NCBI GenBank assembly: GCA_025594325.1
Contig: JANHCV010000010.1
Span: 744,001-808,000 of the forward strand
Length of the DNA stretch: 64,000 bases
Direction of reading: 5' to 3'
DNA from: Blastocladiella emersonii ATCC 22665
Taxonomy: Eukaryota > Fungi > Blastocladiomycota
Below, piece after piece: positions 23,281 through 43,827 of this stretch. Each line of letters opens with the position of its first letter. Position 1 is the stretch's first letter. The position numbers were made by a program, and so were the translations under genes. The notes under the pieces were generated by a model. The model was not told the DNA's origin. It did not search any database and worked only from the letters and a program-made list of their open reading frames with translations.

Positions 23281-24090
23281 CCGAGGCTTCTTGGATCACC
23301 CCACCCTCCTGTTTGTTTGCTCGTTACCTGTGATATATACACTTCTAGTCATGAACCGGTCCGCTGCTCACGTATGCCATGACGTGACCGACGGCCTGAA
23401 AGCTTGCGTGCACGCCAGACAAACGGCCATTTGCTAGAGTATCGCGATGCTTGTCGCATAAGGTGTGACGCAGCTCAAGCTGGTAAGACCAGCCGGTGCG
23501 AAAGGCGCAAGAGAGGCCAGAGCAGGCTTGCGAGACGCGTCGAGGTATCATGTGACCGCCACCGATCATGAACGACGCGTCCCCGACCCAAGGCCGGCTG
23601 AGTTGCAAGGTGTCTCCTCACCGATAAGCTCTTGGGAGTGACGTCGCAGGGTCCGAAATGCCACGTTAGCAAACGTTCCAACCCTCAACGAAGGAAGGCA
23701 GGTCGCGTTTCACCGAGAGAACGTTTCTTGGAGCGCGGCACTTTCTTAGAACACCTAATCGATTGCCCTCATTTCAGGCTGCATCGACCTGCATGCACGG
23801 TTGCCGAGTTGGGCCAAGGTTGGGCGTAGCGCGGCCACAGAGCGGGGAAGCGTGGGCCATGATGAAACGCGAGCGCGTGCTGCGCCACCATCCAGCGTCA
23901 CCGGGTCCTGCAAATGTCGAGCCCCTCACGGCAGGCTGGTCACCGTTGCACTGGATCCGGGATCGAGAAGGGGTCCGACTGCAGCAAACCAATCTCGCCG
24001 CTGAAAGGGCTTTCATCGAGTGCGTCGGCTTCTGCCGCCGTGTCGCGCCGAGCACTGCTCGAGAAGCTGTTCAAGAGGCAGACCCGAGCC

Positions 24091-24098
24091 CTATAAAG
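24091..24098 (+). promoter_or_regulatory. TATA box (CTATAAAG) upstream of the secreted-protein gene
   Basis: 92 bp upstream of ATG 24183; the same octamer precedes both Cys-rich peptide genes (46530, 47755). Confidence 0.6.
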
Positions 24099-24182
24099 AC
24101 CGGCCGCGCCCCTCGCTCTCTCGGCGTCTGATCCTCACCCAACAGCCCAAGCAGCCAAGCTCCCGCACCACTCATCGCCACC

Positions 24183-24599
24183 ATGAACGCCGTCGCCTTC
24201 CTCGCCGCCCTCGTCCTGGCCCTCGTCGCGACCGCCACCGCCGCCGCCGCCAAGGCGCCCTTCCCGGTCCCCGCCACGTACAAGGCCGGCACCATGCACT
24301 CGCTCACGTTCGCCGCCGACGGCAAGCTCACGGTGGCGTCCAGCGTGCGCTGCTTCCGCGCGCCGTGCCCCGAGGCCGGCGGCAAGGGCACCTGGTCGTA
24401 CGACGCCAAGGCCGACGCCATCACGATCCGCATGGAGGTCACGCCGACGTGGTCGGTCGCGCAGACGTGGACGTGCCCCGGCAAGTCGCGCGACATGAAC
24501 GTCTCGCACATGGGCGGGTGTAAGATCGTCAGCTTCGCGGGCACGCAGGCCGACAAGCTGCCCGTCCCCGCCGACGCCAACTCGTGGAACCGCCAGTAA
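24183..24599 (+). CDS. Small secreted protein (138 aa), copy 2
   Basis: Translation identical to 3367-3783. Confidence 0.85.
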   Translation: MNAVAFLAALVLALVATATAAAAKAPFPVPATYKAGTMHSLTFAADGKLTVASSVRCFRAPCPEAGGKGTWSYDAKADAITIRMEVTPTWSVAQTWTCPGKSRDMNVSHMGGCKIVSFAGTQADKLPVPADANSWNRQ

Positions 24600-24731
24600 G
24601 CTGCTGCCCGTCAGTCGTCCTGTGTGTTTGATTCCCTCCTGTTGTTCCTTCCCCTCCTGCCGTGTGACCCTTGCGTGTGTACCTCAGTGTGTGTGACCCC
24701 AAAATCAAAGTATACACATCAATCTTTAGCT

Positions 24732-27245
24732 CTACTCTTCATCATCACTACCATCAGCTTGAGGCGGGTCCCACGCCGCGGCCACGACATCGGCCCACGC
24801 CGCCGCGAGCCCGGGGACGCGCGGCACGAGCTTGGCCTCGAACTGCATCACCGCGTCGCTCGTGAGTCGGCGGCGCTCGATCAGCGTCTTGGCCACGAGC
24901 CGCAAACACTCCTGCGACACGGCCGTCTCCAAACACGCGCGGAAGACGCCGCGAAAGTGCGCCGTGTCCACGTCACCGTACGACGCGAGGTACCGGACCA
25001 GGTGGCGCGCGACCGACGCGGGCGACACGATGCTGCCGCCGTCGAGAGAGCCCTCGGGGAACATGGGCGCGAACCCGAGCACGAACTGCGGGCCCGCGTC
25101 CTCGTCGCGGTCGCCACCAACCCGCGCGAGCAGTGACGCAAACTCGGCCGGCGCGTGCTGCGCCGCGGCGCGCAGAAAATTGTCGGCGACGGCCATCTCG
25201 CGCTGCTTGGCGCGGGTCTTGTCCTTCCAGGTCGGGTACGTCGCGTTGCACACGACCTCGAGCGAGCGGACCGTCTTAGTGGTGACGGGCTCGGACATTG
25301 AGGCGACGGCGGCGGGCGCGCAGTACCCGAGGAGCGCGGTCCACGCCGGGATCGTGCGCGTGTCGGTCTGCAGCTCGCGGCCGTCCTCGCGCGGGACCTG
25401 CGACTCCCAGTTGCGCCCAGCGCACTCGGTCGCGACCGCCGCGAGAAACGACGAGTACAGGATCGACCACCGCGACAGCGATGCCGCCGCGTCGCCAGTC
25501 GTGGTGATGGCGTCGAGGACGTGCTTGGCGTGCGGTGACACGAGGACCGGGATCAGGCACGCGGCGAGCGCACCCGAGTACTGGTACGAAAAGGGCGCGT
25601 GGTCGTCGCCGAGCAGCTCGAGCAGGCGGGCCGCGACCTTGGTGCGCGCGTTCTTGGCGCCGAGGCCGAGCGACTCGAGGTGGTACCCGAACAGCCGGTC
25701 GCCGATCACGTCGAGCCGCTCGACGACGATCTCGGCTGCTCCGTCGGCACCACCGCAGTGCTCGACGGCGAGCGCGATGATGCGCGTGACGAGGCCGGGG
25801 CTCGCGCCGTACGGCTCCTCGACGGCGCGCAGCATCGCGTTGAGCAGCGGGCGGGCCGCCTCGACGCGACTTGGTGCGGGTCCCGTTGGTGAGGTACCGG
25901 CAGTCGGTGCGACAGAAACGAGGAGCATCGTGCGGACCTGCGTGGGCGGGAGACCGGCCGCGACGGCGCGCGTCACGAGCGGCGCCCAGTACGGAGGCGT
26001 GAGCAGCCACGGCCACGCGCGCGCGACCTTGATGACCGCCGCGACCTGGCCCTGCTCGACCCACTCGGCGAGCGCGGTGCAGAACAGGTGCCGCTGCCCA
26101 TCCCCCAAAAGCGGAGCGAGTCGGTCGCGGTCGCGGTCGTACGTCTCGAACACGCGCACGAGGGCCGCCCCGTCGGAGCGCAGCGGGTCGAGGTAGTAGC
26201 TGATCACGTACGAGTAGTGCGGCGGCCCGTGGCCGTGGTCGTTGATTGGGAGATCACCGCGCGGGTCCCAGCCGCGCCCGCGAAGCCAGTCGAGCACGCC
26301 CATGGTCTGCTCGAGCGGGTGCATGCTGATGTGGGTGAGGAAGCACGCGTACACGCACTCGAACTCGAGAACCCGCAAAACGACGGCATCGAAGCGAGGG
26401 TGACGCTTGGCGACGGCCTCGAGCGCGGGCAGGTTCATGTGCACGGCCGCCGAGATGGCGACGAGCGAGAGAAAGTCGACGCACACGTTCACGCCCGCGT
26501 TCTGAATGATCACCGCCGGTGGTCCCAGTGCGAGTTCCTCCACTTCGGCTGCGTCGTCGTCCGAGTCGTCGCCCTCGAGGTCCTCGAGGTCCTCGCGCAA
26601 GTCGGCCAGGTCCCTGGCGACCTCGGGCGTGTGGTCGGGGATCCACTCGAGCATGCGCTTGAGCGGGGCTCTCCCCTCGAGAGCGAGAGTGGGCAGCTTG
26701 CGCACCATGGCGGCGAGCGCCGAGTCGAGATCGGCCATGTTGCCGACCGCCTCGAGGTACAGCGCGAGCACGAGACCGTCGGTGAAGAAGCCCGTCACGG
26801 CGCCCGTTGGGCGGGGCGCCGCACCGTCGAGACTCGCGGCGGGCTCGGGCACGTCGTCCTCGTTGCTGCTCTCGCGGTCGTCGGGCTCCATGAGCGCCAC
26901 CTTGGCGAGCAGCTTGCGCTGGCGCTCGACGAGCGACGCCTTCGACTTGCTGGTGCGCAGGAACGAGCGGAGCAGCGCGTGGAACATGTCGCCGTTGAGG
27001 GGCGGGCGCGGCGGTGCGTCGGAGCGGCCGCGCAGTGCGATCGAGGCACAGGCACACCGCGCGAGCGGCGTCGACCACTCGGGGATCCGGCTCACGTCGA
27101 GCAGTTTGTCGGGCGCGGCGTCAACGAGCAGGTCGCCTAGTGCCTCGCCGACACGGTTGAACCAGACGAGTGGGAGCAGGAGACGGCTGGTCGTGGCGGC
27201 GTCGGCGAGGACGCGGGAGGCGAGCAGCCGCTTGGCCGACGGCGT
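24732..27245 (-). pseudogene. Second copy of the 865-aa gene, interrupted near codon 29 by the viral insertion (5' part at 43828-43916)
   Basis: Matches 637-3234 from TPSAKRLL onward; the N-terminal codons lie beyond the element. Confidence 0.9.
27241..27245 (+). repeat. 5-bp target-site duplication GGCGT (second copy 43828-43832)
   Basis: The empty site at 721-725 (ACGCC) has one copy; both element flanks carry it. Confidence 0.97.
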
Positions 27246-28065
27246 TGTCGTATCCCTTAAGGGATACGACATGGGCTGACCCACTGCCACTTGGGCTGAC
27301 CAATTGCTTACCCCGAGCGGTCGGCGACAGTCACTCGGGGTAACCACGTGAGACCCCGTTGCTTACCCCGGGTGGTTAATAAAATGTCGGATTCAAATGT
27401 CGTGTTCCCTTAGGGAACACGACACGCGGACGGAGGCCGAAGGCCGAAGCAGGTGGGCGGGAGGGTGGGTGGAAGGGAGGGGGCGAGCGGTCCAGGAGTG
27501 AGTCCCTGACCTGACCCCCGAGCCTGTCCCTAACCAACCCCTTGGGCTGACCATTGCTTACCCCGAGCGGTCGGCGGCGGCCGGCGAGCGCAGCGAGACG
27601 AAGAGCAGCGCAGCTGCGGCTACCCACTGACAGAGTTCCCTGGTCTGGTCCCTGAGCACGGCTGCGAGTCGATCTGCGAGTTGATCTGCAAGACAAGTCC
27701 GAGAGCAGATCCCTGAGCCTGTCCCTGACCAACCACTCAGGCTGACCATTGCTTACCCCGAGCGGTTGGCGGCGGCCGGCGAGCGCAGCGAGACGAAGAG
27801 CAGCGCAGCTGCGGCTACCCACTGACAGAGTTCCCTGGTCTGGTCCCTGAGCACAGCTGCAAGTCGATCTGTGAGCAGCCCCCGAGCCAGTCCCTGACCA
27901 CCTGCCGCAAGCAGCTGCTATGAAGCCACTCACTGTAAAGTTCCACTTTCATGGCATATTACGACAGAGTATATATATACACTACCCTTTTTTGCCATGA
28001 AAGTGGAACTTTCAAAGACAAGAGGTCAGGGTACGGGGGGTCAGGGCAGGGGAGCGTCTTAGCAG
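27246..28065 (+). repeat. Left terminal inverted repeat
   Basis: Reverse complement of 43009-43827 apart from 3 substitutions and one 1-bp indel noticed; contains two ~195-bp-period internal repeats. Confidence 0.95.
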
Positions 28066-28089
28066 GCAGCGTCTTAGCAGGCAGCGTCT

Positions 28090-28240
28090 TAGCAGGAAGG
28101 GGCATGCCAGGTCGGGGGTGCCGGGTCAAGGAGGGTCGGGGGTGCCAGGTCGGGGGTGCCGGGTCAAGGAGGGTCGGGGGTGCCAGGTCAGGGGTGCCAG
28201 GTTGGGGGTGCCGGGTCAAGGAGGGTCGGGGGTGCCCGTT
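28090..28240 (+). repeat. G-rich minisatellite (GGTCGGGGGTGCCR-type units)
   Basis: About eight G-tract units, all on one strand. Confidence 0.8.
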
Positions 28241-28304
28241 GCTACGTCATGCCAAGTGCGTTGAATGCGTTTGTCAATTTAAACTTTGTTGGACTACTGT
28301 AACT

Positions 28305-28457
28305 ATGCGAGGCTGTATCAAAGAGATCGTCCCCCTGCCCAAGCCGCCATGCGATCACTATGATGCTCCCAGCTGGGTCCATGACAATGAGCTGCTGTGG
28401 GTCCAAGTTGTGTACCCGTGCTGCGGGCACAAGTACACATACCGCCGGGTAGTCTGA
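28305..28457 (+). CDS. Small viral ORF (50 aa, Cys/His-containing)
   Basis: MRGCIKEIVP...YPCCGHKYTYRRVV; preceded by TGTTG-N8-TAAC motif. Confidence 0.5.
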   Translation: MRGCIKEIVPLPKPPCDHYDAPSWVHDNELLWVQVVYPCCGHKYTYRRVV

Positions 28458-28717
28458 GAGCGACCAGTAAAGGCTTCAAGGTAGCTAACCAAGTTAACTT
28501 GAAGGATCTATTCAAAGCAGACAGTGTACACAACCTTGGCACCTGGCAGGGCCACGTCGCGGATGGCCGTGTAGTTGGCTGTCGACTGGGGGCCCGGATG
28601 GCCAGTCCAAGGGATGCTCGTGGAAGGTGCGCGGGGCGTTGATGCAGTAGAGCCAGTATTCATTGTCCTGTGTCTTACTATGCCTTCGCAGAAAGAATTT
28701 AAAGCACATGTCGTTGC

Positions 28718-28819
28718 TTACTCTACGGCGTGGAATACTTTGCTTGTGTACCTGACAATGGCCAGGTTGGCTACCAGGATCAGGGCGTTGGTGGCAACAA
28801 GGAGCGTCTCGAGGATCAT
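28718..28819 (-). CDS. Small hydrophobic viral peptide (33 aa)
   Basis: MILETLLVATNALILVANLAIVRYTSKVFHAVE; preceded by TGTTG-N8-TAAAC motif. Confidence 0.55.
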   Translation of the reverse strand: MILETLLVATNALILVANLAIVRYTSKVFHAVE

Positions 28820-28850
28820 GTTTACAGTACAACAACAATTAAAGTCAACG

Positions 28851-29594
28851 TCAGATGAACGCGAGCTCGACGTAGAAGGGTTGGCCAAGAAAGTCGACAG
28901 AGCGCAGGTTCTTGTCTACCACGTCAATGTCAATACAGTCAATCTGCTGGGCCTGTCCCTGCGCGTCAAAGCGAAAGTAGTCACCCATGTGTGGTCGATG
29001 CTCGAACCAGCTGCCAAAGGGTTGCGTGACGTGGATGCTACAAAGTACGCCGTTGTCTTGTGGGTACGCGCTGTACATGTTTTCCGCAAGCCGGGTGCCA
29101 AGGTTGCGCGAGTAGACGTGAAGCAGGTTGATGGGCGAGATGTTGACCAGCGCCGACGCGTACTGGACCTTGCTGTAGCCATACGCTCCAACAAAGCCCA
29201 TGTGGACGTTCAGCGACGCCGTCCCTGTTCCAATTGTAAAGTCGACCGTGTCGTTGGCCAGGCGCATCTTCTGGGTAGTCGAGTCAACCTGGACGTCCCA
29301 TGTGCCCTGCCAGAGGTACGCTGAGGGCGCGTTGTTGAGCAGGCTCTTGAGCGTGGCCGTGAACGTCTCGACCGTGTAGTTGCCATCAGGGACGGTGATG
29401 GTGCCCGGGAACGTCAGCGCGCCACGGCTCTGGGTCAGGTACACTTTGTTGGCCTTGGAGTTGACCGTGTGCCAGCTGTTGCAGAGGTACGCCGAGTTGA
29501 CCTTGACGCCGCGCACGGACAGGGGTCGTGGTAGGTACAGGATGCCGTTCTTGAGGTCGCGGCTGCAGATGGTCAGCGTCTTGTACTCGGACAT
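28851..29594 (-). CDS. Minor capsid protein (penton, single jelly roll)
   Basis: SRD N-terminus, ITVPDGNYT, MGF, and C-terminal IDIDVVDKNLRSVDFLGQPFYVELAF match the PLV/virophage penton pattern; adjacent to MCP. Confidence 0.8.
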   Translation of the reverse strand: MSEYKTLTICSRDLKNGILYLPRPLSVRGVKVNSAYLCNSWHTVNSKANKVYLTQSRGALTFPGTITVPDGNYTVETFTATLKSLLNNAPSAYLWQGTWDVQVDSTTQKMRLANDTVDFTIGTGTASLNVHMGFVGAYGYSKVQYASALVNISPINLLHVYSRNLGTRLAENMYSAYPQDNGVLCSIHVTQPFGSWFEHRPHMGDYFRFDAQGQAQQIDCIDIDVVDKNLRSVDFLGQPFYVELAFI

Positions 29595-29612
29595 TTAAAC
29601 AAAGACAACAAT

Positions 29613-29879
29613 TTATTGTACAGCTGTCCCCGTGTCGTCAGCGTCTGCCTCAAAGATCTCGCTCGTCGGTCGGTTGTACCAGGTGTGAATGTCTTGGGCA
29701 AGGTCCACGCCCTTGGTCACCATCTGCGCAATGGAGCTCACGGCGGGGTTGTGCGACCGCTCAAAGAACTTGGACACGGTCTTGACGCCTTTGAGGACGG
29801 TTGGCATGTGTTTGTTGACAAAGGACCCAACCTGGCCGAGCACATTGCTAAAGTTGGTCCAGAGGTTACGGAAGATCAT
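29613..29879 (-). CDS. Small amphipathic-helix protein, possibly membrane-lytic (protein VI-like)
   Basis: FRNLWTNFSNVLGQVGSFVNK amphipathic pattern; lies between MCP and penton. Confidence 0.6.
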   Translation of the reverse strand: MIFRNLWTNFSNVLGQVGSFVNKHMPTVLKGVKTVSKFFERSHNPAVSSIAQMVTKGVDLAQDIHTWYNRPTSEIFEADADDTGTAVQ

Positions 29880-29921
29880 GGCGGGGTTTAACTCTACGCA
29901 AGAAAAGAAAGGACAGGGCCG

Positions 29922-31142
29922 TTACTTGTAGATGTTGATCTCGCCGGTTGGCAGGAACTCGTAGACCACGTCGATGCCAATGAAGGCGTCCACGCGCTGG
30001 TTCGGGGCCACGCTTGAAGTCAGGATCACCTGCATGTCCACGGCCTGGCTCTTGCAAGACTTGTCGCCGCTGACCACGGTGCGACTTGACTCAAGGTCAC
30101 GGCCAACAACAAAGGTACCCTTGGCCAGCGCGTTGAACTTGTCGACTGTGAGGCCAGCGCCAATGACGTGGCCATGGAAGGCATTGGTCAGCTCAACGAA
30201 CGCCTCAGACGCGTAGTCGTCACATCGGATGGGTCGCTGAGGGAAGAGTCGGCCGGCCACGCTGAACTGGTACAATGTAATGGTCTTGGCACGAAGGAAC
30301 GAGTCCTTGGCATTGTTGTTGAGCACGGCATTGTTGCGGAACAACAGCAGGATGTCTTTCTGTGAGGCCGAGCGGTCCGAGATGTTGAGCGTTGAGTTGG
30401 GCACCGAGTAGTTCAGGAAGTGGTGGTTGTAGGTCGTGCCAAAGAGCTTGAGGCCCTGCTTCTTGAAGGCCGCGTCCATGACCGCGATCTGCTGGTCGTT
30501 GAGCTTGATCAGGTCCGAGACGATGCAGACGTCCTTGACTGTGTAGCCCGGGATGACATTGTTCTTGACAATGCAGGCGTCACTGCCAGGTGCGAGGGTG
30601 AACTCGACGCAGATGCCGCCCGTGTACTTCATTGGCAGGTGCTTCTGGTTTGCCAGCAGGGCCGACTTGATGGGCAGCATGTACCGGTGCAGCCTGGACA
30701 AGACGGCGAACTTGTCTGCGCCGGACGCAAAGTAGCCCTGTGCCACGCCGAGACACGAGTCCTTGAGGTACTGGGGGACCATCACGTCGGCCTCGATGCG
30801 CTGACGCAGGTTGTAGTACGGGAGCTCTTCGAGTAGGGCACCAGACGCGCTGTAGATGCGGACACGGTCAATGACGCTGAAGATACCATCGCAGAAAGCG
30901 ACGTTGGCGTCCGTGGTCTTGGCCGAGAACTGCAGGAAAGTACAGTGCGTGACCATCATGTTGTCGCGCGGCGGGAGCAGGACGCTGATGCTGTTGCCAG
31001 GAGCAAACTCGGGGCCGCCCTGAGCTGTGAACTGGACGGTCTGGCGCTCGGCATAGACGGACTCCTTGGGCAGGTTGAACGACATCTCGGGAGGGAGAGT
31101 CTTGGACAGGACCTGCGAGAACTGGGCGTTGGTACTGGACAT
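29922..31142 (-). CDS. Major capsid protein (double jelly roll, PLV-type)
   Basis: 406 aa, beta-rich; EFAPGNSISVLLP, SVIDRVRI, LPMKYTGGICVEFTLAP, YQFSVAGRLFPQRPI, FVVGRDLE; next to ATPase and penton. Confidence 0.85.
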   Translation of the reverse strand: MSSTNAQFSQVLSKTLPPEMSFNLPKESVYAERQTVQFTAQGGPEFAPGNSISVLLPPRDNMMVTHCTFLQFSAKTTDANVAFCDGIFSVIDRVRIYSASGALLEELPYYNLRQRIEADVMVPQYLKDSCLGVAQGYFASGADKFAVLSRLHRYMLPIKSALLANQKHLPMKYTGGICVEFTLAPGSDACIVKNNVIPGYTVKDVCIVSDLIKLNDQQIAVMDAAFKKQGLKLFGTTYNHHFLNYSVPNSTLNISDRSASQKDILLLFRNNAVLNNNAKDSFLRAKTITLYQFSVAGRLFPQRPIRCDDYASEAFVELTNAFHGHVIGAGLTVDKFNALAKGTFVVGRDLESSRTVVSGDKSCKSQAVDMQVILTSSVAPNQRVDAFIGIDVVYEFLPTGEINIYK

Positions 31143-31182
31143 GGTTTAGTTTAGGACTCGGCAACAAAAAAAAGTCAAGAGT

Positions 31183-31980
31183 CTACTGCTTCACGATCCA
31201 CTCGCTGAAGCTGTCTACGAGCCGGTACTTGGGCGGGTTCTGGTTGTTGACGCCCAGGAAGCGTTGCTTCGTGTTGCCAGTACGCGTGTCAAAGAGCTGT
31301 TCAATGATGGCCTCAAACTCCTTGAGGTCGAACTGCGACCCAATCTCCTTGTGCAGCGTCTGGACCTCGGTCTTGTCATAGATTGGGTAGACGACGCTGT
31401 AGCTGCAATTGATGCGCAGAGTCTTGGGCAGGGCACACCACTGCTGGACGCCAATGATGCAGCTGATCTTCAAGTGCCGCGAGTTGCACAGAAAGTTGGT
31501 CAGCGTTTGGTGGCTCAGCAGCTTGAGCCCAAGCACGTTGTCAATGATCAGCAGCTGGTCCTGGAGCGCCTTCTTGCCAGACTCTTCGAATGTCTTGGTC
31601 AGGTCCTGGCGCATCTTGAGCAGGGTCGGGATGAACTGCTCGGGGTCCGTGACAATGCACCCTGGCTTGATCTTGAGCCGGTCCGGGTCGCGCTCCTGGG
31701 GGTCCAGCACGTTGCGCTCCTTCTTGGGCGGTCGCAGGATCGGTTGACTGGCAATGTACTCGTACTTGTCGTTGGCGTGGAACGTCGGGTTAAAGACCCA
31801 GATGTTGTCGAACTGGCCCTTGTAAAAGTGCGGGAAGCAGACCATGTTTGCGATCAGCGTCGACTTGCCCTGACCCTTGGCGCCAATGACGTTCATGGTG
31901 AACGGGTGCTTGGGGATCAGCAGCGGCTCGCTGTCATCGTTGCGCGTAAAGCCGTTGTCAATGGCAACAATGTCGTACAT
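31183..31980 (-). CDS. A32/FtsK-family genome packaging ATPase
   Basis: Walker A GAKGQGKST; Walker B LLIIDN (usually DD); SRHLKIS...Q...LPKTLRIN motif. Confidence 0.9.
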   Translation of the reverse strand: MYDIVAIDNGFTRNDDSEPLLIPKHPFTMNVIGAKGQGKSTLIANMVCFPHFYKGQFDNIWVFNPTFHANDKYEYIASQPILRPPKKERNVLDPQERDPDRLKIKPGCIVTDPEQFIPTLLKMRQDLTKTFEESGKKALQDQLLIIDNVLGLKLLSHQTLTNFLCNSRHLKISCIIGVQQWCALPKTLRINCSYSVVYPIYDKTEVQTLHKEIGSQFDLKEFEAIIEQLFDTRTGNTKQRFLGVNNQNPPKYRLVDSFSEWIVKQ

Positions 31981-32006
31981 TTAAAGACTGCCAACAAAAA
32001 AGGGCG

Positions 32007-33722
32007 TCAGTCCCAGCTGAGGTCAAGCACAATGCCGCTGCGCCTTGGGGTCTCGCGGACCTGCTTGATGGGCCGCTCAGGGATCTTCTGGTGACGCTGG
32101 ATCTTGGGCGCTGTCAGCCCGCTACCCGCTGCCCGCTTGTCTGTGAACAGCTTCGCGTCGGTCGGCTTCTTGTAGCCCAGTTGCTTGAGGATCTGTTCGA
32201 GGAGCATGTCGGTCTTCTTAGAACTACCGCCGGAATTGTTTTGCGCGGCCAGCTCCCTGATCATGGCCTCGAGGCCGCTTGTGTCGGCAGGCTGGACAAT
32301 GACTTGGGGTGCAGGGATCGTGTCCAGCTTGGACCCAAGGTCTTGGAGCGTCTTGGTCATGGCCTCGTTGCTCTGGGTCTGCCCTTGGATCGCGCCCTGG
32401 ACGCCGCTTGCGAGCTGGTTCATGAGCACCTGCTGGTTGCTGAGCGCAGAGGACATGCCCGTGGCAATCTCAGACACAAGCGCGCGGTTGCCAGCGTCAA
32501 TCTGGCGGACAAAGTCGTTGCGTTTGGCTCGGAGCGTGTCCACGATCCCGGACGCGAGGTTGGCAAATGCGTCCATGGCCAGTCCCTGAGCGGCCGCCGA
32601 CTGCTCGATGAGCGCCTGGTACGCCTGGTACTGCATGACCTGGGACCCGGCAAACTGCGAGGCAATGAGCTCGAGCGCGACCATGACGTTCGGGTCATTG
32701 TTGTACTGGACCAGGATCTGCTGCCGCATGTCCACGTTCTGCTCGTAGTAGTTGTTCTCGTACTGGGTGATGAACTGCCGCATGTCGACGTTCTGCGTGT
32801 TCTGCTGCGTGTAGCTGTTGTACACGAACTGGTTAAACTGTTGAAAGTTCTGGACAACGTCGACCTCCATGTTGTCCGTGGTTGTCAGCGCCCGCTCGGG
32901 GTTGTAGACCTGCAAGTCCTTGGAGCCCTCAATCATGCGTGCCTCGTCCATGGCCGGGTGGACGTGACCCTCGTTGTACACGCCTTGTCGCTGTGCCACG
33001 TCCGGGCCGTAGCTTGGTGGCATGACCACGAGGTCGCGGGTGCCGTCGTCAAGCCTTGGGGGCGGGTCGTTGCCGCCGTCATTGTCATTCTGGATCAGGT
33101 ACTGGCCGGGGATCATGGCGCCGTACTCGTCAATGTCTTGACCAACATAGTCGCCGGCCTCGACCGGGTACTGCTCAGGCATGACTGGCCGGACAGGCAC
33201 GGGGAGCAAGTGGTCCGGTACAGCGTCCTCATCAATGACGTCCAGGGCTCGCAAGATCTCTTCTGCCAGCTCGTCGCGCTCCTCTTCGCTGCTGCCCCTG
33301 TCGCTGTCCGTGGCCAACTCGGGGGCCTCTGGTCTGGGGCTTGCCGCTGGTGGAGCGACTGGGACTCGAGTGACCTTGCCCGTTGCCTGGTGCTCTTCCC
33401 ACGCTTTAAGCGTGTCTTGGACGTGCTCCTGGAGGTCCTTGACCTCGTACCCAGTGACGCCGTCCTGGTGCTTGAGGTAGAACAGCGAGTCGCCTCGTTT
33501 GCGGCCAAAGTCGTTGGCATAGCTCTCGGGCGTCACCTTGTAGTCAAAGGCAAGGATGTAAGGCACCCAGACGTCGAGGAGCTCTTTGGCATTGGGGAAC
33601 GTGTACTCGCGGCCATCAATGGTCGCCTTGATCTTCTGCCCTGCAAGGCGCTCAGCCGTGATGCGGCCGTCGGTTGCCTTGGTCACTCTTGCGAGTAGTT
33701 CTGGTACTGTTCTTTGGCCCAT
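32007..33722 (-). CDS. Uncharacterised viral protein (571 aa) with N/Q-rich repeat and coiled-coil region
   Basis: Long ORF with element-type codon usage; duplicated QNVDMRQ motif. Confidence 0.75.
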   Translation of the reverse strand: MGQRTVPELLARVTKATDGRITAERLAGQKIKATIDGREYTFPNAKELLDVWVPYILAFDYKVTPESYANDFGRKRGDSLFYLKHQDGVTGYEVKDLQEHVQDTLKAWEEHQATGKVTRVPVAPPAASPRPEAPELATDSDRGSSEEERDELAEEILRALDVIDEDAVPDHLLPVPVRPVMPEQYPVEAGDYVGQDIDEYGAMIPGQYLIQNDNDGGNDPPPRLDDGTRDLVVMPPSYGPDVAQRQGVYNEGHVHPAMDEARMIEGSKDLQVYNPERALTTTDNMEVDVVQNFQQFNQFVYNSYTQQNTQNVDMRQFITQYENNYYEQNVDMRQQILVQYNNDPNVMVALELIASQFAGSQVMQYQAYQALIEQSAAAQGLAMDAFANLASGIVDTLRAKRNDFVRQIDAGNRALVSEIATGMSSALSNQQVLMNQLASGVQGAIQGQTQSNEAMTKTLQDLGSKLDTIPAPQVIVQPADTSGLEAMIRELAAQNNSGGSSKKTDMLLEQILKQLGYKKPTDAKLFTDKRAAGSGLTAPKIQRHQKIPERPIKQVRETPRRSGIVLDLSWD

Positions 33723-33799
33723 GATGGTTACTGTATGGACCGAAAATAAAACGTCCCCCTGTCGGTACCTTTTTCCCCGTGGCAGGTGCCTTTTGTCCC

Positions 33800-34051
33800 T
33801 CAGACGGTGCTATTTGCCCCCTGGTCCCGGCGCTTGGCGTTGAGTGCCTTGTAGATCCGGATCTTGACCCGCTCTGCCCGCGCTGCCTCGTTGTCGACGT
33901 GCGTGTACCGGTTGGCCTTGTGGTCGCGCTTCCATAGCCACTTGGCCTTGTCCTCGTCGCTCTTGCTGTACCAGCTGCTTGGCACGGGCATGGTCCCGGC
34001 GAGGTGCTCCCGCCACTCGTCCAGGCTCAGGTCATGGTCGCTGGAAATCAT
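33800..34051 (-). CDS. Small basic viral protein (83 aa)
   Basis: Compact ORF divergent from the fibre gene and filling the intergenic gap. Confidence 0.55.
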   Translation of the reverse strand: MISSDHDLSLDEWREHLAGTMPVPSSWYSKSDEDKAKWLWKRDHKANRYTHVDNEAARAERVKIRIYKALNAKRRDQGANSTV

Positions 34052-34071
34052 TCTGTTGCTTAAGGTTAAAC

Positions 34072-36015
34072 ATGGTCAAGAATATCTTTAACGTCTCAAG
34101 TACTGCGTCTCCGACTGTGTCTACCACGGGGGTCCCGGACGTGTCCAAGGCCTACGTTGACGCAGCCATCAGTGCCGTGTACGCCACGGTTGGCACACCT
34201 GTTGCTGGCCCTGGCGTGGCAGTCTCAGGGACCACTGTGTCGGCCAAGGTCGACAACCAGACCCTTGGCGTGGGCGCAGCAGGGCTCTATGTCAAGTCGG
34301 TTGGCACGGCACAGCTGCTCCCGGCCAGCGTCACGGCCGACAAGGTCGCCACGATTACAGCAGGGCAGGTCACTGGCAAGCTCGTCGATGCTCAGCTGGA
34401 CACTGTGTCTGCGTCCAAGGTCGTGGGCGTGCTCAGTGCGTCCAACCTCCCAGCCGTCGGAACCTCGGTCCTGGCAGACGGCTCAGTGACAGATGCCAAG
34501 GTTGCGTCTGTGTCCGGGTCCAAGCTCGTGGCAGGCACAGTCGGGACCTCGGTCCTGGCAGACGGCTCAGTGACTGATGCCAAGGTCGCGTCCATGTCCG
34601 GGTCCAAGCTCGTGGCAGGCACGGTCGGCACAGCGGCTCTTGTTGACCTGGCAGTCACAGATGCCAAGGTCGCGTCCGTGTCTGGGTCCAAGCTCGTTGC
34701 AGGGACTATTGGGACGGGAGCCCTGGCAGACGGTGCCGTATCCAACGCCAAGGTGGCAGCTGGCATCGACGGGTCCAAGCTGGCAGCGGGCACGGTCGGC
34801 TCCCTGGTCCTGGCAGACGCGGCCGTGACCAACGCCAAGCTGGCAACTGGCATCGATGGGGGCAAGCTCAACGTTGGGTCCATTGGAACAGCCCACCTGG
34901 CAGCAGGCGCAGTCACGGACGCCAAGGTTGCGGACGTGTCGGCGGTCAAGCTCACTGGGATCCTCAACCCTGCCCGCATCGCCGACGGGACCCTGACCAA
35001 CGCCAAGCTGGCATCTGGCATTGACTCGGCCAAGCTTGCAGGGACCATTGACCTGGCACGACTCCCCGACGTCTCGGCCAAGGTCACGGCGGTGAGCGCA
35101 GCCTCGGTCGCTGGCACGCTCCCCCAGTCCACCCTTGGGCTTGGCGCTGCCTTTGCCTTTGCAAATACGACGGACAGTTTGACATCAAGCACTGGAGCAG
35201 TCACCATTGCTGGTGGTCTTGGAGTTGGCAAGCAACTGACTGTGCCCAACGTCCTGGTCCGGAATGCCACAAGCGCGAACCTTGTCTTTGACTCGGCTGC
35301 CAATACATTGACGTACGTCGACTTTAAGCAGGCAGGCGTACTGCGAAGCAACCTGGCATGCACAGCGGCAGGTAACATTGAGATTGCGTCTGCGACCACG
35401 GGCGGGGTCTCCCTTGTGGCAGGTGGCGGCAATGTGGTCGTGGGCTCGGCGACGCTTGGCACAGAAAGGTTCCGCGTCAATGGCACTGGTCGCTTCACAG
35501 GGCAGCTCACCCTTGACCTCGCTCCAGTGGCAGGCACCGACGCGGCAAACAAGGCGTACGTTGACTCGCGGTCTGGCACGACCCGGTACGTCGCTCAGGC
35601 CGAGCACCGCTCTACAAACGGAGTGACCACGGGCGGCAAGATCATTGGCGGCACAGCATCGACGGGCCCGGCCACCTTTGCGTTCCAGTCCACGGCGGGC
35701 GCGTTCACGTCTGTGATCAATGGATGCGTCAAACCCCCTGTCAGTGGCTACTACCTCGTCCATGCAAAGGGCTACTACGCAAACGGCGCGCTCCCTGGAG
35801 CCCACACTGTGAACTTTGCGCTGTACAATATGACGGACATGATTGCAGTGTCGCTTGTCACCGGGTGCCGCGCTGAAGGCAACGTCCAGTTCCTTCAGTT
35901 CTCGAGCATTGAGTACCTTGACGCGGCCAAGAGCTACTCTTTCATCTGGATCCCGTCGGTCGCAGTTGCCAACGACTGCCAGGTCATCATTCAAAGCCAC
36001 TGGACCCTGCTCTAA
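34072..36015 (+). CDS. Fibre/spike protein with 28-aa repeats
   Basis: VGTSVLADGSVTDAKVASVSGSKLVAGT repeats (84-bp period); DAANKAYVD motif typical of phage-type fibres. Confidence 0.8.
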   Translation: MVKNIFNVSSTASPTVSTTGVPDVSKAYVDAAISAVYATVGTPVAGPGVAVSGTTVSAKVDNQTLGVGAAGLYVKSVGTAQLLPASVTADKVATITAGQVTGKLVDAQLDTVSASKVVGVLSASNLPAVGTSVLADGSVTDAKVASVSGSKLVAGTVGTSVLADGSVTDAKVASMSGSKLVAGTVGTAALVDLAVTDAKVASVSGSKLVAGTIGTGALADGAVSNAKVAAGIDGSKLAAGTVGSLVLADAAVTNAKLATGIDGGKLNVGSIGTAHLAAGAVTDAKVADVSAVKLTGILNPARIADGTLTNAKLASGIDSAKLAGTIDLARLPDVSAKVTAVSAASVAGTLPQSTLGLGAAFAFANTTDSLTSSTGAVTIAGGLGVGKQLTVPNVLVRNATSANLVFDSAANTLTYVDFKQAGVLRSNLACTAAGNIEIASATTGGVSLVAGGGNVVVGSATLGTERFRVNGTGRFTGQLTLDLAPVAGTDAANKAYVDSRSGTTRYVAQAEHRSTNGVTTGGKIIGGTASTGPATFAFQSTAGAFTSVINGCVKPPVSGYYLVHAKGYYANGALPGAHTVNFALYNMTDMIAVSLVTGCRAEGNVQFLQFSSIEYLDAAKSYSFIWIPSVAVANDCQVIIQSHWTLL

Positions 36016-37124
36016 AGCCCGCGGTCCCACTTTTCTTGGACTCGGACTGGGACGCGCCTGACCCGGGTCGAGGGCTCCCTTGGCGTGACTGGGGTGCGCG
36101 CAACAGGGAGCCTTGGAAGACCTGGACCTACACGCTGCCTTGTTGGCGGGTCCTGGGTCGCTGTGACTGGCTGGACGTCGCTTCGAGGGTAGAAGCCCTT
36201 GAGGCCTTGGACCTTGTAGCTCGGATTGCTCACGCCCGACCCCTTGCGCACGACCTGGACCTGGCTCACAGTTGTCGACCAGACCGGCTTCCCCTTGGCC
36301 TCCATGGCAGTCTTGTACGGCTCGCGGACTCGGACCTGGGTCCCTACCTTCAACAACGCGCTCAGAGGGTCGCCCTCGGGCTTGCCCTTGGCAGCTCGGA
36401 TCTCCTTGAGCTCTTGCTTGGCCGTTTCGCGGGGCATGTCATGGAACGCGTTGGGTGCCTTGCTTGTGGCCCTCGACTTGCTGCTGTTGATCACAGATTC
36501 AATGGTCTCGAGGTGCTTGGGCCAGTCGTTGTTGCCTGGGATGGACAGCCACGGTGTGAGCATCCGGCGGATGGTCCCGTTCATGCGTTCAACAACACCT
36601 TGACCGTATGGCACTCCTGCCTTGCCCTTGATGTGCTTGGCCTCGGTCCCGGCCTCTATGCCAAAGAACTCGGTCCCATTGTCCGTCTGGATCGTGGCAG
36701 GTGCAAGGCTGTGCTTGGCGACCACGCTGGACCATGCTTCCCGCGTCTTGTCCTTGGTCTTGATGGGTTGGAGGTAGACGCAGCGGCTCGCCAGGTCGAC
36801 ACACGTGAGAATGTAACGGAAGCCCTTGTACGTACCGTTTTCGCCCATGTCAATGAGGTTGAGCTGAAAGTTGCGGCCAGGACTTGTTGAGTTGATGCTT
36901 CGAATGTCTCGGCGCTTCTGAGGTGCGCGCTTGTACTGCTGCCACACGGACTGGTTGTTGAGCCACCGCTCGAGCTGGGCGCGGTAGATGTGCTTCCCTG
37001 TGTGCTCTTGGTCGACAATGTCAAAGAGCCAACGGATGCCAACCCCAACATGGCCGCGTTTGTAGTACAAGTCTTTCAGGTACTCGGTCTGTTCAGCAGT
37101 CAAAGGTTCTTCGTGGGCATACAT
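36012..37124 (-). CDS. Retroviral-type (rve) integrase, Polinton/Maverick-like; first catalytic Asp appears replaced by Asn
   Basis: LKDLYY...WLNNQ N-terminus; FQLNLIDM, YILTCVD, IQTDNGTEF, VVERMNGTIRR; C-terminal VGTQVRV SH3-like region. Confidence 0.92.
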   Translation of the reverse strand: MYAHEEPLTAEQTEYLKDLYYKRGHVGVGIRWLFDIVDQEHTGKHIYRAQLERWLNNQSVWQQYKRAPQKRRDIRSINSTSPGRNFQLNLIDMGENGTYKGFRYILTCVDLASRCVYLQPIKTKDKTREAWSSVVAKHSLAPATIQTDNGTEFFGIEAGTEAKHIKGKAGVPYGQGVVERMNGTIRRMLTPWLSIPGNNDWPKHLETIESVINSSKSRATSKAPNAFHDMPRETAKQELKEIRAAKGKPEGDPLSALLKVGTQVRVREPYKTAMEAKGKPVWSTTVSQVQVVRKGSGVSNPSYKVQGLKGFYPRSDVQPVTATQDPPTRQRVGPGLPRLPVARTPVTPREPSTRVRRVPVRVQEKWDRGL

Positions 37125-37152
37125 TGTATTAACAAAGGTGGAGACAAAAGGA

Positions 37153-38280
37153 TTACTGAGGCGTCATGTAGTAGGTCAGCGCAACGGGGACGCTGTGACC
37201 CATCTCGTGCGCGCGTTTGGCAATAGCTTGCTGCGCAGCAAAGTTCTCACTGGTGGAGATACGGCGGATCACTGCCACGCCGCCATCCTCAAAGCCGACC
37301 GTCTTTGCAGCCCAACTAATCGACGTACACCAGGTGCTGCTAACCCTCTTGCGGAGCGTGGTGTCCTTGAGCTCCTCGAGGGTGTAGTTGTTGAAGACAA
37401 AGTCATGACCTTCGGCGAGACGCTGGGCGAGGATACGCTTGAGAGCGGCGGCGACCTTGGGCTCACTAACTGTGTGCGAGAAGTTGTAGCCACAGCCCTC
37501 TGTCTTGACAATGACATCGCCGGCCAGAATCTGGGTCTCTGGGTCGTAGTACGGGTACCCAGTGGTTGGCTTCGTGGTCAGGAACGCAGGGTCGGAGCGC
37601 ACCGCACTCACAACTTGGAGGTACAGACGCAGGAGCCCCGTGCCCGAGCCCTTTGCATCAACAATAGCGGCGCAAATGGCGTCACGGCTTGGGAGCGCAC
37701 CAGACTCGAGTTCCTTGCGCGCGTTGCGGAAGTCGGCAGCGTCCTGCTTCTTGGCCTCTGTGTACTTGGCCCCGAGTTCGGTCCACCCGTTCCAGGTGCA
37801 GTACTTGGCCAGGGCCTTGAGCGTCTCGACCTGCAGACCCTGGACGTTCTTGGACCCCTTGATCGCGCGGTACGTGGCCACGGCCTTGGACACGGCATTG
37901 ACGTTGTGGATATCCATGCCCGACTTGGCAAATGCAAGGAGCACGCAAGTTGTCTTGGTCTTGTCCGTGTCGCTCAGCGTGGCCTGCTCCCCGTTCTTGT
38001 CCACCACAGGCGCGTTGACACATGCCTCGATGGCATCCTCAGTCAGCTCAGCAAACTTGACCTTGGGGGTGTCGACTTCCACGGGAGTGACTTGCTGATC
38101 AGCGCCGTGATCTGGGTCGTGTGACTCGATGGCCTTGAGTCGCGCGTCCAAGTCCTTGAAGCGCTTGTTGATTGACCCAAACACGGGCTGGAGCTTGTCC
38201 ATGACTTGCTGCACCACGTCTGCGGCAACATGCTGAGCGAGGGCAACGGCGACCTGGGAGGCAACAGACTCGAGCGACAT
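37153..38280 (-). CDS. Tyrosine recombinase-family protein
   Basis: Ordered candidate catalytic set: R (SAVRSD), K (IVKT), R (VIRR), H (MGHS), Y (LTYY) at the C-terminus. Confidence 0.7.
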   Translation of the reverse strand: MSLESVASQVAVALAQHVAADVVQQVMDKLQPVFGSINKRFKDLDARLKAIESHDPDHGADQQVTPVEVDTPKVKFAELTEDAIEACVNAPVVDKNGEQATLSDTDKTKTTCVLLAFAKSGMDIHNVNAVSKAVATYRAIKGSKNVQGLQVETLKALAKYCTWNGWTELGAKYTEAKKQDAADFRNARKELESGALPSRDAICAAIVDAKGSGTGLLRLYLQVVSAVRSDPAFLTTKPTTGYPYYDPETQILAGDVIVKTEGCGYNFSHTVSEPKVAAALKRILAQRLAEGHDFVFNNYTLEELKDTTLRKRVSSTWCTSISWAAKTVGFEDGGVAVIRRISTSENFAAQQAIAKRAHEMGHSVPVALTYYMTPQ

Positions 38281-38405
38281 GGTTTACTGACTGTCAACAA
38301 AAAGGCTCCATGGGCTCAAGTGCGTTTGAACGCAACGTTCTTTTTTCTGGGTAGCTGGGCCTGGGTCAGGGTCAGGGTGGTGGCAAGTCATGGACCGTGG
38401 GAGGG

Positions 38406-39720
38406 CCCAGGTCACGGTTTGAGAGGTTCGTGACCTCGGCCTCTGCTGGTGCCCAAGTCGGGGTCATGGGGGGGGGGGGTGGAGGTCCGGTTCTTCGCCG
38501 TCAGTCGCGTCCCAGGTCACGGTTTGAGCGGATCGTGACCTCGGCCTCGACTGGCTCCCAAGTTGAGCTCATGGGGGGTTCGTGACCTCGGCCTCTGCTG
38601 GTGCACAAGTCGGGGTCATGGGGGGTGGAGGTCCGGTTCTTCGCCATCAGTCGCGTCCCAGGTCACGGTTTGAGCGGATCGTGACCTCGGCCTCGACTGG
38701 CTCCCAAGTTGAGCTCATGGGGGGTTTGTGACCTCGGCCTCTGCTGGCGCCCAAGTCGGGGTCATGGGGGGTGGAGGTCCGGTTCTTCGCACTCAGTCGT
38801 GTCCCAGGTCACAGTTTGAGCGGATCGTGACCTCGGCCTCGACTGGCTCCCAAGTTGAGCTCATGGGGGGTTCGTGACCTCGGCCTCTGCTGGCGCCCAA
38901 GTCGGGGTCATGGGGGGTGGAGGTCCGGTTCTTCGCCCTCAGTTGTGTCCCAGGTCACGGTTTGAGCGGATCGTGACCTCGGCCTCGACTGGCTCCCAAG
39001 TTGGGCTCATGGGGGGTTTGTGACCTCGGCCTCTGCTGGCGCCCAAGTCGGGGTCATGGGGGGGGGAGGCCCGGTTCTTCGCCGTCAGTCGTGTCCCAGG
39101 TCACAGTTTGAGCGGATCGTGACCTCGGACCCTACTGGCTCCCAAGTTGGGCTCCTGGGGGGGTCTGTGACTTTGCCCTCAGTCGCTGCCCAGGTCACGG
39201 TTTGAGAGGTTCGTGACCTGAGACGCGATTGGCTCCCAAGTTGGGCTCCTGGGGGGTCCGTGACTTTGCCCTCAGTTGCTGCCCAGGTCACGGTTTGAGC
39301 GGGCCGTGACCTCGGCCTCTGCTGGCTCCCAAGTTGGGCTCCTGGGGGGTCCGTGACTTTGCCCTCAGTCGCTGCCCAGGTCACGGTTTGAGCGGGCCGT
39401 GACCTCGGCCTCTGCTGGCTCCCAAGTTTGGGCTCCTGGGGGGTCCGTGACTTTGCCCTCAGTCGCTGCCCAGGTCACGGTTCAAGGATCGTGACCTGAG
39501 ACGCGATTGGCTCCCAAGTTGGGCTCCTGGGGGTCTGTGACTTTGCCCTCAGTCGCTGCCCAGGTCACGGTTCAAGGATCGTGACCTCGGACCCTACTGG
39601 CTCCCAAGTTGGGCTCCTGGGGGGTCCGTGACTTTGCCCTCAGTCGCTGCCCAGGTCACGGTTCAAGGATTGTGACATCGGCCTCAACTGGCTCCCAAGT
39701 CGGGGTCATGGGGGAGGTCG
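38406..39720 (+). repeat. Tandem array of hairpin-containing units (4 x 146 bp, then ~6 x 90-94 bp, plus partial end units)
   Basis: CCCAGGTCAC starts at 38406, 38511, 38657, 38803, 38949, 39095, 39189, 39282, 39375, 39469, 39559, 39650. Confidence 0.95.
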
Positions 39721-39888
39721 TGTCTGGGTCAGGGACAGGTCACGCAAGGGCAGCCGGGCCTGGGTCAGGACAGTGGCAAGTCATGGGCCATGCCAACAAG
39801 GGCTCCCGGGTCACAGCCATTAGCGCTAAATCCTGCGCGTTTAAACGCACCTGCCCTGTCACCTTTTCTGTTACCTCATCATAACAAC

Positions 39889-42800: not shown

Positions 42801-42909
42801 CTACTTTGTCATGTACAAGACCTGGACCACTGCCCCGGCCGAGTCGGCGCCATTTGTCCTGGAGCTGGACCTGGACGAGGTCTACGACGAGCTCATCAAC
42901 GAGCCCTAA
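39889..42909 (+). CDS. AEP primase-polymerase fused to a UL9-like superfamily-2 helicase
   Basis: AEP motifs YFDID, KKSWHI, DASVYSKHRFMK..QSK; PriCT-like segment; helicase GMGSNKT, VVVDESE, FMDA, ITIGVNF, FQAIYRVR. Confidence 0.85.
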   Translation: MVCETVPDNAGGKSFGLQWYRGKDGGGSDMGPQRKLLSELQDDETVIKRLINKGVDNHGEPKAAHYFAKVKTVGLAGLLNKNRCIQEMVHPERLSKVYFDIDCPGNNKDVTLDVIKKVILAQFPGANLQVCGYETDLKKSWHIVLSNYTATLKDMSFLKLFCSHPDHVKLGFDASVYSKHRFMKCINQSKPKKTPGTFKAGNKDRLSKHLIQYDFDPNCVPISDLSFVEFVSAKAKAARAKRRKGRFDYDLDIPKFKDVQIDPDFFYYNATPLEILHNLPVSPENAFHNNVTWLIMTWAMRKGVTFEQFWAWTSQQDNSAQRFAKYQQRWGEIASNCDYQVPDKFIKAIFYKRFRDAFKSKAMIKFEQSLQVPADVTVPNQFLSCNDITEAKFNVLATGMGSNKTGAVCDYIAKYPDARVVWITPRITLAHNTEGRAREQKLGFVNYRSIKDKKTLGDHKRLIVSPCSLHYLTEPYNIVVVDESETVLKMFQDAKLHTTTIRNNLEANLKAFKTLCEHKGSKGIFMDAFVTNLTMDVLRSFTVEHNIKTILHGKIKVITNTLGKEFEPRKMSLITDNKDKDKEKSAEDIMESNIIADLKANKKLYLFLPRPCKKSTKWSVQTFGEYLERVFAEETWKIGKQIKLYHGDRPNHEDKELIDPNSVWGDNTVRIVIANLKITIGVNFSTKNKFDKVYARYESWVPARNFFQAIYRVRYPIDNEIVFMISNGCHGAYMNKSQVINSDLVGKLHQAIVKNTDLENEMAAVTSCLKVFDTFRKVANIVMDDSPEYYYKAHPEIEDVMTSGWSFDWANVQLPSKETLRDHCKGTLKDPDWTICLSVRKAFFIRKFKGLSENNMEAIWDDNAERFMERIQYFYTKDKAHVLHKLLDHNGMDLRTSEEFNIQATIPATFEADIHKYFKKLGYYKCDTATVLNRLLSTYFNKCLAVPDKDEPRVSVRGKKYTNLKWTEDINYFVMYKTWTTAPAESAPFVLELDLDEVYDELINEP

Positions 42910-43008
42910 GACAGTCCACGACCTGCCACGCTGCCTTCCTGCCTGCTAAGACGCTGCCTGCTAAGACGCTCCCTTGCCCTGACCCCTGTCCCGCCCAATA
43001 CATTGATG

Positions 43009-43827
43009 CTGCTAAGACGCTCCCCTGCCCTGACCCCCGTACCCTGACCTCTTGTCTTTGAAAGTTCCACTTTCATGGCAAAAAAGGGTAGTGTATATAT
43101 ATACTCTGTCGTAATATGCCATGAAAGTGGAACTTTACAGTGAGTGGCTTCATAGCAGCTGCTTGCGGCAGGTGGTCAGGGACTGGCTCGGGGGCTGCTC
43201 ACAGATCGACTTGCAGCTGTGCTCAGGGACCAGACCAGGGAACTCTGTCAGTGGGTAGCCGCAGCTGCGCTGCTCTTCGTCTCGCTGCGCTCGCCGGCCG
43301 CCGCCGACCGCTCGGGGTAAGCAATGGTCAGCCTGAGTGGTTGGTCAGGGACAGGCTCAGGGATCTGCTCTCGGACTTGTCTTGCAGATCAACTCGCAGA
43401 TCGACTCGCAGCCGTGCTCAGGGACCAGACCAGGGAACTCTGTCAGTGGGTAGCCGCAGCTGCGCTGCTCTTCGTCTCGCTGCGCTCGCCGGCCGCCGCC
43501 GACCGCTCGGGGTAAGCAATGGTCAGCCCAAGGGGTTGGTTAGGGACGGGCTCGGGGGTCAGGTCAGGGACTCACTCCTGGACCGCTCGCCCCCTCCCTT
43601 CCACCCACCCTCCCGCCCACCTGCTTCGGCCTTCGGCCTCCGTCCGCGTGTCGTGTTCCCTAAGGGAACACGACATTTGAATCCAACATTTTATTAACCA
43701 CCCGGGGTAAGCAACGGGGTCTCACGTGGTTACCCCGAGTGACTGTCGCCGACCGCTCGGGGTAAGCAATTGGTCAGCCCAAGTGGCAGTGGGTCAGCCC
43801 ATGTCGTATCCCTTAAGGGATACGACA
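43009..43827 (-). repeat. Right terminal inverted repeat
   Basis: Reverse complement of 27246-28065. Confidence 0.95.

Follow-up and report, generated by a model that had tools for sequence, protein, structure and literature searches.

An inner copy of the terminal palindrome in a Polinton-like virus of Blastocladiella emersonii: a possible second site for a dimeric recombinase

Why would a Polinton-like virus (PLV) carry a second, slightly different copy of its terminal palindrome inside each of its terminal inverted repeats (TIRs)? The locus that raises this question lies in a 64-kb stretch of Blastocladiella emersonii DNA, which we call the window. Two preprints, in their accessible text, describe two matters as unresolved: how PLVs that lack a protein-primed polymerase are excised, replicate their ends and insert again, and which substrate the widespread PLV tyrosine recombinase has (10.64898/2026.07.28.741278, 10.64898/2026.10.13.758929). 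Terminal palindromes have already been reported in such viruses; as far as the accessible literature goes, a short outer and inner pair in a fungal PLV with both types of integrase was not found there. Our literature search, with most subscription papers outside its reach, turned up neither this element nor any inner copy of a terminal palindrome, and no paper on Blastocladiella together with Polintons. Here the recombinase looks intact, the two candidate sites are short and occur in natural variants, and the host is likely culturable. Thus the question can be tested with oligonucleotides and one protein.

The element is a PLV of 16,582 bp with TG...CA ends (27246-43827). Its TIRs are 794 bp long (27246-28039 on the forward strand and 43034-43827 on the reverse strand) and differ by three mismatches, all at CpG. 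A 5-bp target-site duplication (TSD) flanks the element (27241-27245 and 43828-43832, both on the forward strand). The window also includes the empty site, a single copy of the 5 bp (721-725, reverse strand) where an inverted duplicate of the host region runs without interruption, and therefore the exact ends of the element and the TSD are fixed. Beyond their 794 bp, the TIRs remain raggedly similar across G-rich tandem repeats of 15 bp and 14/24 bp (28040-28300, 42938-43033). The inverted duplication of host DNA is near-identical, at least 4.3 kb long (1-4458 versus 23532-27245 plus 43828-44552), and runs off the start of the window. Of the two copies of an 865-aa ORF, one is broken by the virus close to the 5' end of the frame. 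The other (637-3234) is intact; a Pfam search gave no match for it. A tandem pair of diverged two-gene units, 64-73% alike, occupies 4525-9635, where the G+C content is below that of neighbouring host DNA.

Several features by which PLVs are recognised are present: a double-jelly-roll capsid protein, an A32-like ATPase, a size within 15-25 kb, TIRs and TSD-flanked integration. Of the two enzymes of canonical Polintons/Mavericks, the rve integrase is present, and no Pfam match to the protein-primed DNA polymerase B (pPolB) was found among the 14 element ORFs scanned, the sole 1000-aa ORF being origin-binding-like. No Rep-type nickase was found among the ORFs scanned either. Five ORFs without a recombination or replication assignment come first from the left. 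On the reverse strand these are a 247-aa ORF (28851-29594), a candidate minor capsid protein by position only and with no Pfam match, the major capsid protein (29922-31142), the packaging ATPase (31183-31980; PF04665, E 1.5e-11) and a 571-aa ORF without an assigned function (32007-33722). The forward strand encodes a repeat-rich fibre-like protein (33979-36015; PF09327, E 3.5e-10). The capsid assignment comes from a low-confidence structural model (pLDDT 54.9), the best matches of which are the capsids of PBCV-1 (E 7.6e-11), iridovirus and PRD1. The rve-type integrase (36012-37124, reverse strand; PF00665, E 4e-5, under the curated cut-off) has Asn at residue 89, where both of two homologs have the first catalytic Asp. 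A herpes origin-binding-protein-like helicase/primase of 1039 aa is encoded on the forward strand (39790-42909; first match 0.99, with PF02399 in 70% of the members of that cluster). Between this gene and the divergently transcribed recombinase gene lie tandem arrays of 146-bp and ~93-bp units (38328-39722).

The tyrosine recombinase (37153-38280, reverse strand) looks intact. The fold and the candidate catalytic Arg, Lys, Arg, His and Tyr are present, and these residues are conserved among homologs. Its model was matched with XerA (Z 10.1, rmsd 12.9, 231 residues aligned; Foldseek E 3e-4) and XerH-dif (Z 9.0, rmsd 5.8, 244 aligned), as well as with integrase-like proteins of giant viruses and phages. 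TelA ranks seventh (E 4.6e-3) among the Xer, Int and Cre matches in Foldseek and is absent from the rows of the second structure comparison. With only 9-16% identity to solved structures, the fold fits Xer/Int, Cre, protelomerase and topoisomerase IB relatives alike and gives no subfamily placement. Sequence searches of solved structures returned no match for the recombinase or the helicase/primase. A profile search with the recombinase returned only four proteins, three of them named from B. emersonii; all seven of its homologs (57-98% identical) and six of the eight other capsid homologs are named from this species as well. Judging by these names, B. emersonii very likely carries several subfamilies of the element.

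This copy of the element is decaying, as follows from the Asn in place of the catalytic Asp of the integrase, the location of all three TIR mismatches at CpG, and the CpG observed/expected ratio, which is 0.84 in the element versus 1.2-1.3 in host DNA. Most differences between the recombinase and its closest homolog also sit in CpG context. Decay of the CpG type suggests that the provirus is methylated by the host.

The terminal palindrome (27246-27271 on the left, 43802-43827 on the right) consists of two 13-bp arms without a spacer (26 bp, 13-0-13) and is followed by TG. Its two copies are identical on the forward strand. Thus the pair is an inverted and a direct repeat at once, i.e., non-directional. 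The inner palindrome is 27 bp long (13-1-13, with T in the centre) and lies at 27398-27424, exactly as an earlier sequence-only reading had placed and written it; its mirror copy is at 43649-43675. The left and right inner copies differ on the forward strand solely at the centre base, and therefore form a pair in inverted orientation. The offset from the terminal to the inner palindrome, start to start, is 152 bp in each TIR. The resemblance of the arms and of the CCCT/AGGG core to those of the terminal site, also claimed earlier, was borne out, as the outer bases and the core are common to both palindromes. In this copy, the differences between the two sites are symmetric. The inner palindrome has an odd centre and no TG after it, whereas the terminal one has an even centre. 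The spacing between the core and the outer bases differs by one base among the sites. The sites can be read as half-sites around a centre (10-7-10 for the inner and 10-6-10 for the terminal one), in the manner of tyrosine recombinase core sites with their 6-8-bp exchange region, a reading that any palindrome of this size allows.

These four are the only palindromes in the whole window with arms of at least 10 bp and a spacer of 0-3. The chance expectation of a palindrome with 13-bp arms is ~7e-5 per 794-bp TIR, and an arm of 12 was reached in none of 1500 simulated sequences of TIR length. The 9-bp core, with one mismatch allowed, is not enriched in the window (7 matches versus 6.3 expected). 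Behind the terminal palindrome, the body of the TIR also starts with TG (27271-27273, 43800-43802). The resulting nested TG...CA ends look as if the terminal palindrome were an opened hairpin cap.

Sister copies of the element were seen only through contigs of four runs (X1 to X4), all from one sample. We compared 263 contigs over the end of the element and 46 contigs over 27352-27459, the region of the inner site. Loose ends before 27246 agree poorly with each other, which points to several different flanks at the terminal site. The inner site occurs among the contigs in four forms, designated A, A', B and C. Form A is the perfect palindrome of this copy. Form A' has two adjacent left-arm changes (27403 and 27404) without a partner change, so that two positions are unpaired. 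Its share of contig depth, which is not a measure of copy number, is 43-45% in X1 and X2 and 100% in X3. Form A' diverges after 27453 and therefore represents a separate subfamily. The left arm of the inner palindrome is overlapped by a 13-bp tandem duplication (27382-27407, forward strand). At both places where A' is changed, its left arm agrees with the upstream copy of this duplication, whereas A matches the opposite arm. A single C>T at 27401, of the CpG type, accounts for 17% of depth in X2 and probably arose by decay once the element had inserted.

Forms B and C were read by hand from 30-letter loose ends of contigs of the one sample. Form B (loose end before 27421) has 25 bp, both arms being one base shorter. 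Its end and core bases are all kept (17/17), and the bases upstream match at two of nine places. Two of its pairs are changed on both sides, and two middle positions are unpaired. Just downstream it is ~95% like this copy and could thus be a mosaic instead of being distantly related. In form C (loose end before 27431), nine left-arm bases are visible, with the outermost ones out of view; eight of the nine pair, with one base bulged, and there are two two-sided changes. All four forms seen of the inner site have an odd centre. In short, the middle of the site varies among sister subfamilies, and the ends and the core stay. One X4 contig matches the terminal site over 27249-27268 only and rejoins at 27431; these match limits put its departure at 27248 and, presumably, at the partner position 27269, which suggests a symmetric change at the terminal site, too.

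Leaving aside variants near contig ends, which were filtered out, the list has variants at 3 of the 27 places of the inner site, at 23 of the 222 examined in the TIR flanks and at none of the 26 of the terminal site. Among close copies, the inner site thus shows no sign of being more constrained. Insertions starting at the inner TG were absent from six rows of loose ends in the 46 contigs over 27352-27459, all of which lie at 27421 or 27453, and none of the 22 listed of 36 end rows lies at 27398; contigs drop rare variants.

Is the symmetry of the inner palindrome under selection, as the sequence-only reading held? The comparison of TIRs across copies, which that reading had called for, gives a divided answer. 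The outer ends and the core are kept in two other subfamilies together with two-sided changes. However, A' has an unpartnered two-base change, other forms have an unpaired middle, and the density of variants in the inner site equals that in the flanks. The arm substitutions described as compensatory are indeed symmetric in this copy, but perfect symmetry is not general across sister copies. Because the sister copies have unpaired middle positions, it belongs to this subfamily. According to the accessible text on template switching, this process homogenises arms and can yield symmetric changes of several bases where there is no selection (PMC8604942). As template switching can mimic them, the "compensatory substitutions" carry less weight as evidence than they seem to. 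The perfect 13/13 symmetry here is likely a by-product of arm-to-arm template switching upon a constrained motif. In the simplest history, A' is older and A was perfected through template switching; the reverse order is possible. The ends, the core and the odd centre that B and C retain, in short strings of a single sample, are the better evidence.

We tentatively favour an explanation in which the inner palindrome is a putative second, probably uncut site for an element-encoded dimer, most likely of the tyrosine recombinase, that would also act on the terminal palindrome. The outer and inner blocks kept on both sides of a variable middle fit two half-sites for a dimer. Tyrosine recombinases form dimers on inverted half-sites of similar size, and such habits of the family make the recombinase the natural candidate. 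Each half-site would bind one monomer. The inner pair would help to load the protein or to pair the two ends, and cutting would take place at the terminal site only. The symmetric terminal site could serve excision, hairpin resolution or hairpin priming. Recombination between the non-directional terminal copies would allow excision, and between the inverted inner copies only inversion. Insertion itself is likely the work of the rve integrase, to which we assign it because of the 5-bp TSD.

Several observations count against a second binding site. The density of variants is no lower in the inner site than in the flanks, and A' has its two unpaired positions. The one-base variation in spacing between the outer bases and the core is awkward for a rigid protein contact. 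The two-sided changes fit a role as a hairpin or template switching equally well. As the candidate binder, the recombinase is not separable from the integrase, the helicase/primase or a host factor.

Clearly less probable is that the inner palindrome is a neutral relic, i.e., a copy of the tip (an old end or a slippage product) that was kept or made symmetric through template switching. The tandem duplication that overlaps the left arm speaks for this, as does a variant density that is the same as in the flanks. The A' arm equals the upstream copy of the duplication at the two changed places, and the two-base change of A reproduces the opposite arm exactly, which is a mark of arm homogenisation in the accessible account of that process (PMC8604942). 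Yet outside the palindrome itself the flanks of the two sites are not homologous (best local scores 18 and 10, which correspond to 9 and 5 matched bases), the ends and the core persist in B though its upstream bases do not align, and the odd centre is found in all four inner variants versus the even centre of the terminal site. An older terminus, one of the roles offered by the sequence-only reading, is not supported: since the flanks are not shared, no TG follows the inner site and the parity of the centres differs, an old end is unlikely. If the palindrome is a neutral relic after all, it is a clear case of template switching imitating compensatory evolution.

Almost as probable as a relic, and likewise doubtful, is a role of the site as a hairpin or cruciform when replication intermediates are single-stranded, for instance to signal priming to the helicase/primase. 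Primases of some plasmids recognise hairpins. The inner palindrome is predicted to form a hairpin of -13.2 kcal/mol, strong on both strands (z -7.6 and -7.9), in which two-sided changes keep the pairs and mismatches occur only in the middle, like an internal loop. No pPolB was found here, and terminal palindromes accompany non-pPolB replication in Halocafeteria elements, according to the accessible text of a preprint (10.64898/2026.07.28.741278). However, an internal hairpin has no 3' end for priming, and a role of structure only leaves the base identity with the terminal site unexplained. In addition, there is a better candidate for an origin within the TIR. It is a third inverted repeat with 20-bp arms and a 36-bp spacer containing a TA run (27937-28012, mirrored at 43061-43136; z -10.7). 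Its 20-bp arms round a TA-rich spacer resemble the layout of herpesvirus origins. The repeat would be origin-like, and among the candidate sites for the helicase it is the best. Near 27960 its spacer includes seven bases of the right arm of the terminal palindrome, possibly by chance.

The sequence-only reading had also considered an ITR-like folded end, with nested inverted repeats between the two palindromes. The proposed fold of 27246-27430 (z -6.56) gives separate terminal and inner hairpins plus weaker stems, and 27300-27380 alone folds no better than shuffles (z -1.42, with 15 of 200 shuffles equally good), which argues against a joint folded end. The nested inverted pair is present (27308-27317/27334-27343, found in the repeat search). 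It belongs to a TIR motif repeated five times, three copies of which, two forward and one reversed, lie between the palindromes (27305-27370), and two more at 27555 and 27750, so that each TIR has four forward copies and one reversed. Two 180-bp repeats, 92% alike and with a period of 195 bp, follow on the forward strand (27501-27875). An E-box-like CACGTG lies at 27345; in subfamily A', this motif is repeated in tandem directly inward of the inner palindrome (loose ends behind 27453-27465). These motifs are possible sites of host transcription factors.

We consider it unlikely, and less probable than a relic or a hairpin, that the inner palindrome is an active directional recombination site, the inner copies of which recombine by inversion only, or an attachment site for a helper giant virus. 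The asymmetric 7-bp centre of the inner site would limit its two copies to inversion, which is how FRT sites recombine inside the inverted repeats of the yeast 2-micron plasmid. The 10-7-10 and 10-6-10 readings, the inverted inner copies beside non-directional terminal ones and the intact look of the recombinase are consistent with such a site. For virophages with both enzymes, a second integrase for insertion into giant viruses has been proposed in the accessible part of the Halocafeteria preprint (10.64898/2026.07.28.741278). On the other side, the core-to-end spacing varies and no helper virus is known here. Among the joints listed in the contigs there is no strand-changing one (circle or hairpin junction), which contigs are unlikely to reveal anyway, and no inversion; in identical repeats, contigs cannot reveal such events. 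The accessible text of a paper on Mycodnaviridae, which reports giant viruses in zoosporic fungi, leaves Blastocladiella unmentioned (PMC13533422).

With the same low probability, both palindromes may form a two-site recombination system of the element. At the terminal site, the recombinase would release the provirus in circular form or seal its ends into hairpins, taking over from the terminal protein of pPolB elements. Inversion between the TIRs, driven by the directional inner site, would amplify the replicating circle, as in the 2-micron plasmid. The rve integrase would open a single terminal palindrome at its CA ends, and repair would then duplicate it at both ends of the insertion. Very improbable is a host factor, namely a telomere-repeat (Myb-type) protein that could bind TTAGGG at the inner centre: the hexamer at 27410 is kept in A, A', B and C and is missing from the terminal site, but it is single, another one at 27528 has no palindrome, and the outer arms remain unexplained.

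The putative second binding site for a recombinase dimer can be set against known systems. Scans of proteins from viral contigs and metagenome contigs found no relatives of the element proteins, and a degenerate pattern of the inner site had no matches in viral contigs. A degenerate pattern of the terminal site matched 23 metagenome loci, which we treated as unrelated: three of the 23 are perfect palindromes, no locus is accompanied by another core within 500 bp, and no relatives of the seven element proteins tried are encoded there (best E 0.32).

The recombination sites dif/Xer, loxP, FRT and lambda att, as well as protelomerase sites, consist of two inverted half-sites. Like the core sites of tyrosine recombinases, the inner and terminal palindromes can be read as two inverted half-sites over 26-27 bp, in an element that encodes an enzyme of this fold; unlike at such sites, insertions of the element have a 5-bp TSD, the mark of an rve integrase. 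Protelomerase sites are even-centred palindromes, as is the terminal site but not the odd-centred inner one. The ITR of parvoviruses and AAV is a folded, T-shaped terminal structure. The terminal palindrome here can form a hairpin, but no T-shaped fold joins both palindromes and the ORFs scanned include no Rep-type nickase. The element shares TIRs, an rve integrase, a double-jelly-roll capsid, an A32 ATPase and a size of 15-20 kb with canonical Polintons/Mavericks, and differs from them in that no pPolB was found and in its origin-binding-like helicase/primase, tyrosine recombinase and palindromic TG...CA tips.

Among PLVs and virophages, the accessible text of one preprint calls the link of the tyrosine recombinase with AEP or PolA replicases elusive (10.64898/2026.10.13.758929), and that of another, on PgVV, names the recombinase as the likely integrase of its PLVs (10.1101/2022.07.28.501842). 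Close to our element are those of Halocafeteria seosinensis, where virophages (subtypes 1, 2, 5 and 6) and PLV subtype 4 have terminal palindromes in their TIRs; the accessible text links these palindromes to non-pPolB replication and rve integrases and proposes a hairpin-priming model (10.64898/2026.07.28.741278). As here, the palindrome lies within the TIR beside the TSD. The example given is 52 nt long versus 26 nt here, and that text mentions no second inner copy (10.64898/2026.07.28.741278). Its screen used a minimum palindrome length of 20; if this is the length of an arm, 13-bp arms are missed, and short palindromes of the present kind would escape it (10.64898/2026.07.28.741278). An rve integrase together with a tyrosine recombinase is found in our element and in some Halocafeteria virophages, but not in Halocafeteria PLVs as far as the accessible text goes (10.64898/2026.07.28.741278).

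The arrangement of the sites is best compared with the TIRs of Sleeping Beauty. In the available account, these contain an outer and an inner site of different length, the inner one nucleates the pairing of ends, and only the outer one is cut (PMC7827188). The parallel with this IR/DR-type end is a functional analogy only: in Sleeping Beauty, a DDE transposase with a PAIRED-like domain binds direct repeats that are not palindromic (PMC7827188), whereas here the sites are palindromes in a capsid-encoding element, with an rve integrase and a 5-bp TSD instead of a Tc1/mariner transposase and a TA target. What the two systems have in common is one outer and one inner related site per TIR, slightly unequal in length, the inner of which is proposed to stay uncut (PMC7827188).
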